Assembly: GCA_049296775.1 (NCBI GenBank)
Contig: JBAQTB010000003.1
Location: 12,766 to 76,765 of the forward strand
Direction: 5' to 3'
Origin: Patescibacteria group bacterium
GTDB lineage: Bacteria > Patescibacteriota > Patescibacteriia > UBA9934
DNA: 64,000 nucleotides
Part shown: positions 3,719 through 7,639 of the stretch, one piece after another
How positions within the stretch are numbered: position 1 is the stretch's first letter
How the letters are laid out: each line of letters begins with the position of its first letter
Translations under genes and position numbers: made by a program
The notes under the pieces: generated by a model
Databases searched by the model: none
Seen by the model: the letters and a program-made list of their open reading frames with translations, nothing else
What the model was told of the DNA's origin: nothing

Positions 3719-4453
3719 CTAGAGCGAGTACCGCGTGTTGGGATTGGGGACGATGATGTTGCCCCTAAAGCCAGATGACAGGCAATTGCCCATGACTTGC
3801 GTTTGGGTGTCAGTTCCGGGCAAGTGCGTGAGCACTAGAGTTTTTACACCTGCCCGTTGCGCGATATTGCCGGCCTGTGCTGGTGAGAGTGCGCCAGAGA
3901 GCTTACCAGCTTCGCGGTCGCTGATTCGTGTTGGTACTTCGCAGATCAACGTTTGGGCATTGAGCGCGATGGGTATGAGCTTGTAGGGCTTGAAGCGTCC
4001 ACAATTGCCGATGTAGACAATTTTTTTGCCGGCTGTGGTGATTGCGTACGCGAGTACGTCGCGGATACCGAATTTGGGGTACAGTGCTTGGCTACTTAAA
4101 ATGGCATTTTCTGCCAATGGCACAGCGCTGTCCTTGGCTGACATGTTGGTGACATTGATGCCATCCAAATGGATCTTGTCCAGTGCTGCGGCCAGGTGCC
4201 TGGGGCCGAAGACTTGCAGGACGTTGCCGTTTTGACCTGAGTCGTCGGGCATCCGTTTTGGCAAGGACTGCAGTTTCTTGATGAAGCTGTCGCGCTTTGA
4301 CTGACAGTCATCGACGACGGCGATGTGTGAATACGGCGTCATCGGATCACCGAACATTAGGCACGAGCTATTTCTTTGTCCCCAGTACACTACGACGCGC
4401 GGATGTGCTTTGCGGCCGTTAGCGTGGACAGGGTATACAACCTCGACCTTCAT
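3719..4453 (-). CDS. Metallo-beta-lactamase-fold hydrolase
   Basis: MBL-fold-like His/Asp pattern and LVLTHL segment. Start taken at MKVEVVY (4453). Exact family not resolved. Confidence 0.5.
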   Translation of the reverse strand: MKVEVVYPVHANGRKAHPRVVVYWGQRNSSCLMFGDPMTPYSHIAVVDDCQSKRDSFIKKLQSLPKRMPDDSGQNGNVLQVFGPRHLAAALDKIHLDGINVTNMSAKDSAVPLAENAILSSQALYPKFGIRDVLAYAITTAGKKIVYIGNCGRFKPYKLIPIALNAQTLICEVPTRISDREAGKLSGALSPAQAGNIAQRAGVKTLVLTHLPGTDTQTQVMGNCLSSGFRGNIIVPNPNTRYSL

Positions 4454-4614
4454 GTTTACTCCCCCAAGGTAATTGTCTCGACACAGTGTCGTGACCGGGA
4501 AGTGTAGTCGTTGTTGGCTCAAAAGTCAAGCTGTTTATAGACGATTTTTCAGCCAAATTTAGCCGTGCTACAATCATAAATAACTCCCCAGCTTTAATTC
4601 GTAATAGTGCAATT

Positions 4615-4869
4615 ATGCTAAATAAGCAGGATATTGCCCTCTTGAAGGGGATGTTAGAAATTCAAAAGAAAGACATTATCTTAGATGTGAGGGACGAAAT
4701 TCATTCTTGTATTTCAGCTTCTGAGGCCAGAATGATGGCTAAGATGCATGACATGAAGATTGATATCATCCACGATGTCGCGGAGCTAATCGACGGCTCG
4801 ATCTTGCCGCAAACTTCAGACTTAGACCGCCGTGTGTCTAGGTTAGAACGATACGTGAAGATCGCTTAG
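4615..4869 (+). CDS. Small coiled-coil protein, copy 1 of a tandem paralogous family
   Basis: 84 aa; conserved N-terminus MLxKxDIxLLKGMxExQKKDIILDVRDE and SILPQ motif; C-terminus TSDLDRRVSRLERYVKIA. Confidence 0.7.
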   Translation: MLNKQDIALLKGMLEIQKKDIILDVRDEIHSCISASEARMMAKMHDMKIDIIHDVAELIDGSILPQTSDLDRRVSRLERYVKIA

Positions 4870-4886
4870 TTTTTAGTTGATTAAAT

Positions 4887-5162
4887 ATGTTAACTAAAAC
4901 AGACATCAGTCTCTTGAAGGGAATGTTCGAGACTCAGAAGAAAGATATTATCTTAGACATGCGGGACGAGACACGTTCGGTGATTAACGCCGCCATCACA
5001 GCTTCAGAGCAACGCATGACTAATAAGTTGGATAAATTGGAACAGAAGATAGACCGAGTCGCTTCAGACGCAGCTGAACTCATCGGTGACTCTATCTTGC
5101 CACAAATCGACGAGCTTCGGAGAGCAGATGCTCGAATCAAGAAATTTGTGGGAATGGTCTAG
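4887..5162 (+). CDS. Small coiled-coil protein, copy 2 of the tandem paralogous family
   Basis: 91 aa; same N-terminal consensus, SILPQ motif, alternative C-terminus ...ARIKKFVGMV. Conserved leader gattaaatATGttaactaaaa shared with copy 3. Confidence 0.7.
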   Translation: MLTKTDISLLKGMFETQKKDIILDMRDETRSVINAAITASEQRMTNKLDKLEQKIDRVASDAAELIGDSILPQIDELRRADARIKKFVGMV

Positions 5163-5242
5163 ACGTAACTCGACTCCTGTCGCAAACCTCTGACCTGGAT
5201 CATCGCTTGTCTAGACTAGAACACCACGTTAAGCTCGCCTAA
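5162..5242 (+). pseudogene. Relic of a fourth paralog (C-terminal 23 codons only)
   Basis: Codons 5174..5242 translate to LLSQTSDLDHRLSRLEHHVKLA*, homologous to the copy-1 C-terminus ILPQTSDLDRRVSRLERYVKIA*. No start codon; out of frame relative to copy 2. Confidence 0.6.
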
Positions 5243-5261
5243 GTCTTCTTAGTGATTAAAT

Positions 5262-5516
5262 ATGTTAACTAAAATAGACCTGACCCTTTTGAAGGGCATG
5301 TTCAAGACTTACACGGAAGACGTTGTCTCGATGGTTCGTGATGAAACTCGATCGTTAATTGCCGCTTCGGAACAACGTATAACTGCTAAATTAGAAAACA
5401 AAATCGACCAACTCCGTTCTGATGTTATTGACCTGACGAATAACTCAATTCTGCCTCAGATTCACGAACTTCAGGAGGACAACTTACGTATCAAAAAATT
5501 CGTGCGGATGGTTTAG
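5262..5516 (+). CDS. Small coiled-coil protein, copy 3 of the tandem paralogous family
   Basis: 84 aa; MLTKIDLTLLKGMFKT..., SILPQIHELQEDNLRIKKFVRMV. Confidence 0.7.
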   Translation: MLTKIDLTLLKGMFKTYTEDVVSMVRDETRSLIAASEQRITAKLENKIDQLRSDVIDLTNNSILPQIHELQEDNLRIKKFVRMV

Positions 5517-5574
5517 TTGACCTTGTCGAGTATCGGCTCGGGATCATGCTATCCAACATACGTTAAAGCTTGAT

Positions 5575-6396
5575 TTAAGCAGTTATGCGCCGAATAGGGG
5601 TGTGGACGGTTTTGCGGTCGAAATAGTTAGGTTCCGGTGGACTACAAAAGAATACTATCGCCCAACGTGAGGCGGTATCGTTATAGATACTGTTCCCTCG
5701 TTGAAGTACGTCGTGCCATGTTGGCATTAGTTCATTATCAGTGTGTAGTCCTAGTGAAATGCCCGGAAAGAACAGGCCTTGACCTTTTGTATGTGTAACT
5801 TCTGTGAGGTGTTGATCGTCTGGGCCTAGACGTAGTCCTGGCGCGCTTTCTGCAATGGCGATGGTGCAGCTACCACGATCGTAATGTCCTTTAGCTAGGA
5901 AATCACCAGCACGAGTTCGATCATATTTAAGTAAACGAATCACGTATGCATCATTACCGTCAGCGGGGAAGAATTTAGTGTATAAACCGGGGTAGTCGAC
6001 TTCTAATGAATGTATTATTTCTCGCATTGCGCTCAAGGTTTTATTTAGAATTGGATCCAGACTTCGTGTAAGGGCTTGAGCGGCAGGGATTTGGGCTATC
6101 AGTGGAGCAAATAGGATTTTTGCTTGATTGTTATAGTGAAAGAACTCTTTATTGTCATATCCAAAGCCAGCATCAACACTACGACGTCGCCAGCCAAGAT
6201 CTACACCGCGATCACGTTCATCTTGTTTTATATCGATTACAAACTTAGCCTTATCTGTCTCTGGGAGAGCTAAAAAAGTAAAGAAATTTTTTACCGCTAG
6301 AGCGATTTGTTCAGAATGAATTTCAAGCGGAAACTCGAAATAAGATTGTTTTTGAATAGTGGCTTTTAAGTTGGTTATATTGTATTTAGACGCCAT
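5575..6396 (-). CDS. Fe(II)/2-oxoglutarate-dependent oxygenase (isopenicillin-N-synthase-like fold)
   Basis: 2OG-FeII_Oxy-type motifs: [20 protein letters not shown] (HxD), PGLRLG, TWHDVLQ...[10 protein letters not shown] (distal His plus RxS). The start overlaps the glyA stop by 11 nt. Confidence 0.6.
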
Positions 6397-7639
6397 AGTT
6401 TAATTCCGGATATAGCGGAAAGGCTTGCATGAAGACGGCGACTTCGGCTTTGATGGATGCGAGTTTGGTGGGATCTTTTTTGTGAGTGATAGCTTCGTCG
6501 ATCCAGGCGGCGACTTTGATGATGTCGGCTTCTTTTAAGCCGCGAGTTGTGATTGCTGGAGTACCTAAACGGATGCCGGATGGGTCCATAGGCGGGCGAG
6601 GATCGTCCGGGATCATATTTTTATTACAGGTAATTCCAGCTGCGTCTAGGGCCTGTTGAGCTTCGCCGCCAGTTGCGTTTTTACTGGTGACGTCGATGAG
6701 CATTAGATGGTTTTCGGTGCCACCGAACATTAGTTTGTAGCCTTTAGCGGTAAGCTCGCTCGCCAGTACCTGAGCATTGGCCTTAATTTGTTTGGCGTAC
6801 GCTTTGAATTCAGGTTTAAGCGCTTCTCCAAAAGCTACCGCCTTAGCGGCAATGGTATGCATGTGGGGGCCGCCTTGCAACATCGGAAACACGGCTTTAT
6901 CGATCTGCTTGGCTAGGGCAGCCTTACACATAATCATGCCGCCACGTGGTCCGCGTAGAGTTTTGTGCGTGGTGGTAGTCACAACATCGAACAAGGGCAC
7001 GGGGTTATTCATTTCACCTCCAGCAATCAAACCGGCGATATGAGCAATGTCAGCCATGGAGTAGGCGCCAACGCTGTCCGCGATTTGTTTGACACGAGCG
7101 TAGTCGATTTCTCTGGAGTAAGCCGAATAACCCACGAGAATCAATTTTGGTTTGTGTTCTTTGGCGGTAGCCTCGAGTGCGTCGTAGTCAATGCGGCCAT
7201 CCGCGGTGGTCTTGTAACGCAAGAAATTGTAGCGCTTGGCTGAATCGGTGACGGGGTGGCCGTGGGTTAAATGACCACCGTGGGATAAGTCCATCCCGAG
7301 CACAGTATCGCCAGGGGCAAGTAATGCTGCATAAACAGCAATGTTCGCCGGTGCTCCGGAGTGGGGCTGCACGTTGACGTGCTCAGCACCAAACAATAAT
7401 TTTGCCCGTTCAATGGCTAAAGTTTCCAATTTATCGACCTCTTCACAGCCACCATAGTAGCGTTTGCCGGGGTAGCCTTCTGCGTATTTATTGGTGGCAA
7501 CTGAGCCAAGTGCTTCTAAGACCGCTTGGGAAACAAAGTTTTCTGAAGGAATTAACTCTAGACCACCACGTTCGCGAGCTAGTTCTAGGTCTAAGGCCTC
7601 GGCGATTTCTGGATCCTGATCTTTAAGCGTTTTAAACAT
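6386..7639 (-). CDS. glyA: Serine hydroxymethyltransferase
   Basis: Near full-length SHMT similarity ([21 protein letters not shown], the PLP-lysine region [14 protein letters not shown]). Confidence 0.95.

Follow-up and report, generated by a model that had tools for sequence, protein, structure and literature searches.

Here we describe an array of small paralogous genes in the genome of a Patescibacteria group bacterium, examined within a window of 64 kb, by which we mean the whole stretch of DNA that was analysed; coordinates given without a locus number are positions in this window. L-numbers denote retrieved loci of relatives, L001 and L002 being the nearest, and P-numbers denote family proteins. 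Three adjacent genes on the plus strand follow a promoter and a leader with a CTCCCC motif that is predicted to pair with conserved codons of the first gene. We propose that the locus is an operon of oligomeric, probably trimeric, coiled-coil rod subunits of non-heptad type with a family-specific 5′ RNA helix, an explanation to which, taken as a whole, we give slightly less than an even chance. The array and its leader comprise the following features.

4566..4574, plus strand: extended −10 element TGcTACAAT from the promoter scan, promoter of the three-gene operon, with a −35-like TTTTCA at 4546-4551, 17 nt upstream
4584..4589, plus strand: CTCCCC leader motif, probably at or near the mRNA 5′ end; 5′ arm of a predicted long-range helix (arm about 4581-4589)
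4615..4869, plus strand: copy 1, 84 aa, promoter-proximal, type-A C-terminus (..ILPQTSDLDRRVSRLERYVKIA); open reading frame (ORF) and alignment, family profile E 8e-33
4647..4655, plus strand: 3′ helix arm, GGGGAUGUU, from the third base of codon 11 (Lys) into codon 14; from the RNAfold minimum free energy (MFE) structure
4878..4899 and 5253..5274, plus strand: shared translation-initiation region, 22 nt, TGATTAAATATGTTAACTAAAA, identical between copies 2 and 3
4887..5162, plus strand: copy 2, 91 aa, type-B C-terminus (..ILPQIDELRRADARIKKFVGMV); ORF and alignment, identical to P0001 (WAZ14_02740)
5165..5242, plus strand: remnant (~20 3′-terminal codons) of a fourth copy, of type A, then an intergenic leader as after copy 1
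5262..5516, plus strand: copy 3, 84 aa, type-B C-terminus; ORF and alignment, identical to P0004, family profile E 5e-26

An earlier note on this DNA had described three adjacent same-strand paralogs of 84-91 aa with a conserved N-terminus and an SILPQ motif, and the ORFs and their alignment bear this out. When the three are aligned, copy 2 shares 56% identity with copy 1 and copy 3 shares 44%, and 33 columns are invariant, including the N-terminal MLxKxD..LLKGM block, RDE, ASE and SILPQ. The pairwise ratios of nonsynonymous to synonymous substitution rates (dN/dS) lie between 0.11 and 0.19 and synonymous sites are saturated between the paralogs; copies 1-3 are therefore old, selected protein-coding genes, and all three are under purifying selection. 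The leader DNA that copies 2 and 3 were said to share is present as a stretch of exactly 22 nt, which has remained identical despite the saturation of synonymous sites elsewhere. The fourth, truncated copy is absent from the earlier note. The DNA of this remnant aligns with the tail of copy 1 and the leader of copy 2. It codes for a C-terminus of the type found in copy 1, QTSDLDHRLSRLEHHVKLA followed by a stop; frame 3 of 5165-5242 translates as VTRLLSQTSDLDHRLSRLEHHVKLA up to a stop, and the family profile matches it weakly (E 0.0096).

WAZ14_02740, encoded on a contig of 383 kb, is identical to the product of copy 2. A word-indexed search returned only two other homologs and the narrower alignments retrieved two genome loci and seven metagenome loci; an exhaustive profile search of 1.84 billion protein representatives found 141 relatives at E<=1e-3 and 29 at E<=1e-10, and the representatives of the family clusters are nearly all 70-150 aa long. 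A second search with a profile of 86 sequences gave 116 matches, the named sources of which are almost all annotated as ‘hypothetical protein’; the organism names given are those of Patescibacteria, and one genome-collection locus, L004, carries the label Gammaproteobacteria. These proteins constitute an undescribed, Patescibacteria-restricted family of cytoplasmic proteins of 75-140 residues. The earlier note had not recognised the family, and neither did we: for the three window proteins and the 86 members, sequence searches of Pfam, NCBIfam, PADLOC and the PDB gave no significant or consistent family match, PHROGs gave none to the family at E<0.004, a profile search of the PDB yielded nothing below E 0.1, and Foldseek with a lone-helix model found nothing. 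The matches in the curated libraries are weak and inconsistent coiled-coil noise (DASH_Ask1, MtrG, VASP_tetra, TraM PRK13895, LeoB), and DUF6441 at ~26-27 bits is confined to two repeat-expanded members. A match to the nitrile-hydratase alpha subunit (E 0.2) was considered as a link to NHLP and rejected, as no NCBIfam NHLP or Nif11 match supports it. Two pattern scans of the IMG/VR viral contigs revealed no relatives, and a literature search for the family found no description.

The two alternative C-termini seen in the window turn out to be two conserved sequence types that extend across the 86 members. The type-A tail reads ..D[DL][HD]xR[IV]xRLE.. and the type-B tail ..ELQxDxxx[IV]KxHxxLA; by simple pattern 16 members belong to type A, 47 to type B, and 23 are intermediate or unclassified. 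Types A and B are ancient conserved subfamilies that usually reside in separate genes elsewhere in the genome. Assembly GCA_040960375.1 encodes both types in unlinked form, P0039 (type B) being encoded on one contig and P0046 (type A) on another; the longest contig for both P0147 and P0213 measures 617,920 nt. The tail of copy 1 is nearest to those of distant A-type members (P0040, 60%; P0088, 57%), its first 29 residues are nearest to copy 2 (76%), and its promoter and leader have their orthologs in L001 and L002. By sequence, the ortholog of the single-copy gene of these two relatives is copy 2, whose dN to L001 and L002 is 0.23-0.26, compared with 0.40-0.46 for copies 1 and 3. The ancestral locus held a single type-B gene downstream of the promoter, an arrangement that L001 and L002 have retained. 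Because the remnant is followed by the same leader as copy 1, the array can be written as [A1 B2][A′ B3], a duplicated two-gene unit, and its duplication history can be read from the alignments: a unit of one type-A and one type-B gene formed and was duplicated in tandem, and a later deletion left only the last ~20 codons of the second type-A copy. We also considered whether copies 1 and 2 had recently undergone gene conversion. The identity of third positions is 0.55 over the 29 N-terminal codons compared to 0.35, and a similar rise is seen against L001, hence conversion is not demonstrated. Duplication is not confined to the window, as L010 carries two paralogs 900 nt apart (3734-4108 and 5010-5453) with at least 100 nt of identical upstream DNA and identical first 17 residues, an independent local duplication.

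Each family protein is predicted to form one uninterrupted alpha-helix ~13 nm long. AlphaFold2 models copy 2 as one helix spanning residues 4-90 when given five sequences (predicted local distance difference test, pLDDT, 93.5) and as one continuous helix spanning residues 4-88 when given 86 (pLDDT 97.3); residues 1-3 are non-helical in both models. The window proteins contain no or one cysteine each, and the description of the proteins as helical and Cys-poor in the earlier note was accurate. Hydrophobic residues recur with a periodicity of 3.7-3.8 in single proteins and 3.65-3.75 in the family profile, compared with 3.5 for a heptad, and the family lies near the ~3.67-3.75 of hendecad and pentadecad repeats. 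Their spacing follows a 3/4/4 pattern in which adjacent doublets are frequent; I, V, L and M dominate the core columns, which are rich in Ile and Val. This combination of spacing, doublets, periodicity and I/V core points to a coiled-coil bundle of non-heptad (hendecad/pentadecad) type. The length of the members varies in units of ~11 residues, with internal 11-residue repeats in P0012, P0034 and P0053; both ends of the protein are conserved and the middle is variable in length. Since the middle changes in steps of ~11 residues it would behave as the spacer of a rod. The nearly invariant polar residues R26, D27, E28 and E41 together with H/S34-35 and A39-S40 form a patch (R-D-E ... H-S ... A-S-E-x-R) that is likely to be a partner-binding surface, and the two tail types may specify different partners or permit mixed oligomers.

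A lone helix of this kind would have to oligomerise, and the N-terminus suggests how it might do so. In N-capping beta-layers the beta1 and beta2 positions are hydrophobic (beta2 usually A/V), beta3 is D/N/T/S, position e is K/R and position g is D/E/Q, followed by a core residue (PMC4786415); such layers may sit at the very N-terminus of a protein, as in SadB, MPN010/DUF16 and HA2 (PMC4786415), and all proteins in which they have been found are homotrimers (Hartmann et al. 2016, eLife 5:e11861, PMC4786415). Columns 1-7 of the family alignment are M81; L61/F15; D37/S18/T11; K54; Q/K/N; D71 (E5); I62 (V8, L6), where 84 sequences have a residue in column 1, which is M in 81 of them, and columns 3, 4, 6 and 7 agree with the rules for beta3, e, g and the next core residue. 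The strict motif occurs in 47 of the 86 members, in 38 of these at residue 1, and the non-helical residues 1-3 of the AlphaFold2 models are compatible with a beta-layer and not diagnostic of one. Given that beta-layers are so far confined to parallel trimers, we infer a parallel, probably trimeric, cytoplasmic rod; the trimer with an N-terminal beta-layer is the leading structural proposal and not a result, and the rod is our best guess as to the oligomeric state. The DUF1640, DUF3782 and DUF16 models are not among the matches of the 86 members at E<=0.01.

A leader motif accompanies the family and covaries with its coding sequence. The extended −10 element had been placed at 4567-4575 upstream of copy 1; the element is real and its coordinates are off by one base (4566-4574). 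Promoter-like sites in the array region overall are no more frequent than in shuffled sequence. The TGnTAnnnT element is kept in the upstream DNA of the L001 and L002 genes and of 10 further family loci, where 8-14 nt separate it from the CUCCCC motif, and the recurring layout consists of TGnTAnnnT, 8-14 nt, (C/T)(T/C)CCCC, 27-37 A/T-rich nt and ATG; the window, L001 and L002 have in common an invariant block of 11 nt, TAACTCCCCAG. The YYCCCC layout was present in 11 of the 14 loci first examined and was found in more among L014 and L019-L023, in unrelated contexts, whereas the 64 kb of the window contain an extended −10 coupled to the motif only once, at 4566-4589. Rfam gave only a chance miRNA match for 4300-5800 (E 0.75), and the whole window holds only three tRNAs.

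The RNAfold MFE structure pairs 4581-4588 with 4647-4655 in the window, and in most of the 11 loci folded it pairs the 5′ motif with the conserved K/R-G-M codons ~30 nt past the AUG; the helix encloses the start codon in a loop of ~55 nt. The flanks of the two arms change together: CCCCACG(A) with (U)CGUGGG in L011, L017 and L021, CCCCGC with GCGGGG in L004, GAGAA with UUCU(U/C) in L005, L014 and L015, and CAUGAAG with CUUCGUG in L023. Across 12 lineages the duplex of a leader with its own coding sequence has a mean energy of −11.3 kcal/mol compared with ~−9.8 kcal/mol for cross-locus pairs (permutation P=0.004), and −8.1 kcal/mol for shuffled leaders. Codon choice follows the same pattern. 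Gly12 is encoded by GGG in 7 of 11 lineages, compared to 14% of the Gly codons in neighbouring genes (P=2e-4), and by GGR in 10 of 11 against a background of 34% (P=1.6e-4); copies 2 and 3, which have no leader, use GGA and GGC.

We propose that transcription begins just past the conserved extended −10 and that (A)CUCCCC, as the 5′ end of the mRNA, forms base pairs with the run of G in codons 11-13, looping out a start codon that lacks a Shine-Dalgarno (SD) sequence. As the arms of the helix lie ~30 nt either side of the AUG, its likeliest effects would be 5′-end protection and/or tuning of initiation, and not start-codon occlusion. Copies 2 and 3 are without this leader and have an identical putative re-initiation region of 22 nt. 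Most genes in this genome lack an SD sequence (dnaB, glyA, murB, hpf) and start after A/T-rich, often TTATTCTT-like sequence, the exception being the neighbouring metallo-beta-lactamase (MBL)-fold gene with GGGGGAG before its start. The idea that CUCCCC mimics an anti-SD sequence was dropped for this reason. A 52-aa ORF at 4419-4577 on the minus strand, which starts with GGGGAG-N6-ATG, is not conserved in L001 and L002 and is probably a spurious by-product of the CTCCCC motif.

The array lies, as the earlier note had it, between an MBL-fold gene and a pair formed by glyA and a 2-oxoglutarate (2OG) oxygenase that overlap by 11 nt.

3719..4453, minus strand: divergent and degenerate MBL-fold gene, a syntenic neighbour and not a functional partner; only its C-terminal part matches Lactamase_B_2
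5575..6396, minus strand: isopenicillin N synthase (IPNS)-like 2OG-Fe(II) dioxygenase gene, convergent, overlapping glyA by 11 nt; from ORF, Pfam and homolog names
6386-7639, minus strand: glyA, Pfam SHMT E 1e-160

The MBL-fold hydrolase of the earlier note is half upheld. The fold stands, the gene being an ortholog (30-33% identical) of MBL-fold genes in L001 and L002, and the metal motif HxHxDH is lost: the window gene reads IAVV----DD where L001 and L002 have ISHAHPDH, and the downstream His is missing as well. The encoded enzyme is probably catalytically dead or the gene decaying; its Pfam score is 22.8 bits compared to a cut-off of 27. Its likely true start is ATG 4453 (MKVEVV, after GGGGGAG), not TTG 4522. 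The invariant AAAAGTCAA block at 4521-4529 reads TTGACTTTT on the minus strand, where it is the −35 of a promoter-like site for this divergent gene, TTGACT-17-TACACT (4501-4529, minus strand). The public gene calls L001 7078-7887 (plus strand, 264 aa) and L002 7079-7921 (plus strand, 275 aa), neither with a Pfam match, are on the wrong strand; the real gene in each is the minus-strand MBL-fold ORF with HAHPDH. The gene at 5575-6396 scores 18.9 bits against the Pfam 2OG-FeII_Oxy cut-off of 23, its translation displays the H-Y-D and distal W-H-D expected of a 2OG-Fe(II) oxygenase, JGI lists its family as ‘isopenicillin N synthase-like dioxygenase’, and PF03171 is present in several homologs.

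In L001 and L002 the gene order is dnaB-permease-folD-[MBL, minus]-family gene-[slot]-glyA-157 aa-murB, and there is only one family gene. The slot that overlaps or abuts the glyA stop is filled by the IPNS-like dioxygenase in the window, by an S-adenosylmethionine (SAM) methyltransferase in L001 (8239-9033, minus strand) and by a DHH-like gene in L002 (8249-9163, minus strand). Elsewhere the family occupies at least nine unrelated, lineage-stable contexts without oxygenase or MBL gene, and no enzyme is common to them; with x standing for the family gene, they include LeuRS-x-ComEC-NDK (L005, L015), giant CBM protein-262 aa-x-class II aaRS-M23 peptidase (L011, L019, with two intervening genes in L023), TrmB...PHP/MJ0043_C-x (L010, L012, L020), CysRS-x (L007), aminotransferase V-x-ferredoxin (L008), Cys/Met PLP enzyme-x (L021), LPG synthase-x (L022) and peptidase-x-RNase HII (L017/L018). 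An aminoacyl-tRNA synthetase (aaRS) gene, for LeuRS, CysRS or a class II enzyme, directly adjoins the family gene in 3 of ~9 independent synteny lineages, which exceeds chance expectation (rough post-hoc P ~0.01), namely at L005, L007, L011, L014, L015 and L019, and lies within 2-3 genes of it in L021-L023. About 1.1 kb downstream of a family member in L020 we also noted a pair resembling a diversity-generating retroelement (4378-5791), bAvd (PF22296) and a reverse transcriptase (RVT_1).

This neighbourhood had led the earlier note to a loose analogy with precursor peptides, in which the proteins would be precursors of ribosomally synthesised and post-translationally modified peptides (RiPPs) with a conserved leader and a variable core, processed by the adjacent 2OG oxygenase and MBL hydrolase. 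The adjacency itself, the conserved N-terminus and the two C-terminal types in the window fit such a scheme, and one further relative probably has an oxygenase nearby, as P0157 and the oxygenase homolog P0227 are both encoded on an 8575-nt contig. The analogy was to fail if relatives lacked the linkage, and they do: where the window has the oxygenase, L001 and L002, which keep the MBL gene by synteny, have a methyltransferase and a DHH-like gene, respectively; the distant members reside in unrelated contexts with neither enzyme, the window MBL gene lacks its metal motif, and the oxygenase family also occurs widely in Patescibacteria by itself. No enzyme is shared, the C-termini are two conserved ancient types and not hypervariable cores, the proteins are confidently predicted to be helical from end to end and the window copies have at most one Cys, and the locus contains no protease or ABC exporter and shows no NHLP or Nif11 match; the precursor reading is therefore largely refuted, and we consider it very improbable. 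Equally improbable is a role as a component of a mobile element, phage or defence or toxin-antitoxin system, such as a small antitoxin or a phage fibre-like protein. Small tandem paralogs in a variable slot between folD and glyA might be expected of such elements, there are scattered weak matches to PADLOC models and the PrlF antitoxin, and most beta-layer proteins of known structure are viral (PMC4786415). Against this stand the paralog lineages that keep a stable chromosomal synteny among housekeeping genes, the absence of relatives from the IMG/VR scans and of PHROG matches at E<0.004, and the lack of a toxin-like partner gene; the PADLOC matches are inconsistent and each concerns a single member.

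Two further alternatives concern the protein itself and have to be weighed against the trimeric rod. The family could consist of surface-active amphipathic helices of 11-mer repeats akin to apolipoproteins, LEA proteins, YtxH or phasins, which bind membranes or lipids or confer stress protection as monomers or loose oligomers; a periodicity of ~3.67 and length variation in 11-residue units are what such helices would display, a promoter of its own and a structured leader are what one might expect of a stress protein under regulation, and a few members have sub-threshold matches to Apolipoprotein, Phasin and YtxH, with ApoE chains in the PDB at E>1. We hold this to be unlikely, since the best of these scores stay well under the cut-offs (Apolipoprotein 24.5/90, YtxH 17.7/37.5 and Phasin 13.6/28.8 bits), the hydrophobic positions are narrow and beta-branched as in coiled-coil cores, both termini and the polar patch are conserved with a precision unusual for generic amphipathic repeats, and there is no membrane anchor. 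A different coiled-coil architecture, be it a parallel or antiparallel dimer or tetramer or a hairpin broken at the proline, with the N-terminal motif as an ordinary helix cap, is a possibility we regard as doubtful. It draws on several observations that weigh against the trimeric rod. The motif can equally be understood as a generic helix capping box with a hydrophobic staple and proves neither beta-layer nor trimer, and 39 of the 86 members miss its strict form; column 2 is hydrophobic and bulky (L 61, F 15, A only 2), whereas canonical beta2 prefers A/V; four members weakly match the VASP tetramerisation domain; and P72 of ILPQI, conserved in 78 of the 86 members, lies inside the predicted helix and might break it. 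In favour of the trimeric rod, AlphaFold2 with 86 sequences runs a straight helix through this proline (pLDDT 98), residues 1-3 are non-helical in both models, and the motif agrees with the five sequence rules of N-capping beta-layers, including e = K and g = D, apart from the bulk of its beta2 residue. The explanation as a whole is further weakened on three sides. For the oligomeric state, the AlphaFold2 models are predictions of monomers only; for a function, the family contexts offer no conserved neighbour gene that would suggest one. The RNA helix, finally, has its own difficulties: RNAalifold finds no consensus pairs in 16 leaders, which we attribute to a register that slides by 1-2 nt between loci, a subgroup (L008, L012, L020, L010) has a different and longer leader, the transcription start is placed from the promoter position only, and CTCCCC could instead or additionally be a DNA operator.

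The rod proposed here resembles several known systems. The N-capping beta-layer coiled coils of Tcar0761/DUF3782, the DUF1640 (MCUR1/CCDC90B) stalk and SadB share a similar motif, MATKDDL compared with ML(T/S/D)KxDI in the family, followed by a long coiled coil, and PDB entry 6h9l contains repeated MATKEDI units, although its match to the family is not significant (E 0.41). In contrast to these proteins, the family lacks significant homology to them, a head domain, a membrane anchor and a nuclease, has L/F at beta2 and its motif at residue 1, and its trimeric state is a proposal. MPN010 of Mycoplasma pneumoniae (DUF16, PDB 2BA2) has an N-terminal beta-layer followed by a coiled coil in hendecad register (PMC4786415). 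Like the present family, the DUF16 proteins are small cytoplasmic proteins of unassigned function in a reduced-genome bacterium. DUF16 is a multi-paralog family. The two families are, however, without sequence similarity and belong to different phyla, and DUF16 has an extra internal beta-layer and different termini. With the 11-mer helices of apolipoproteins, LEA proteins, YtxH and phasins the family has in common the ~3.67 periodicity and 11-residue modules, and it differs from them in its conserved termini, its narrow core and the sub-threshold matches in few members. At the RNA level, 5′-terminal stems are known to stabilise bacterial mRNAs and long-range pairings between 5′ untranslated region and coding sequence occur, as exemplified by the ompA 5′ hairpin and the cspA leader. 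Here too the transcript 5′ end would be sequestered in a helix with its partner inside the coding region; in contrast to ompA- and cspA-type structures the partner would consist of the conserved K/R-G-M codons, and the element is tied to one protein family across many genomes.

Taking the proposal further, the rod may be a trimer capped by a beta-layer in which types A and B co-assemble, the three isoforms giving heterotrimers, and CUCCCC:K/R-G-M may be a new cis-RNA element that governs the expression of a regulon of dispersed paralogs; this extended version is possible and rather doubtful. If it were true, protein sequence and mRNA structure would constrain each other, and the regulon, a small one marked by the element, would have a single control mechanism in common, for instance stress- or growth-dependent mRNA stability.

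The small genomes of Patescibacteria (CPR) abound in lineage-specific genes of unassigned function. The work delimits one such family, gives it a structural model, divides it into two subtypes and describes its syntenically stable paralog lineages and a local expansion, and it removes a tempting but wrong natural-product interpretation. The family is new, the kind of protein is familiar, and what is of interest lies mainly in the pairing of leader and codons and in the predicted headless beta-layer trimer. Should the trimeric beta-layer prediction hold, a rare structural element would be extended to a class of headless, anchorless cytoplasmic proteins. To our knowledge, almost no post-transcriptional regulation has been described in Patescibacteria. 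The arrangement of promoter, leader and codons offers a testable candidate for a cis-regulatory RNA element, one in which RNA structure would bias codon choice at a conserved protein motif.

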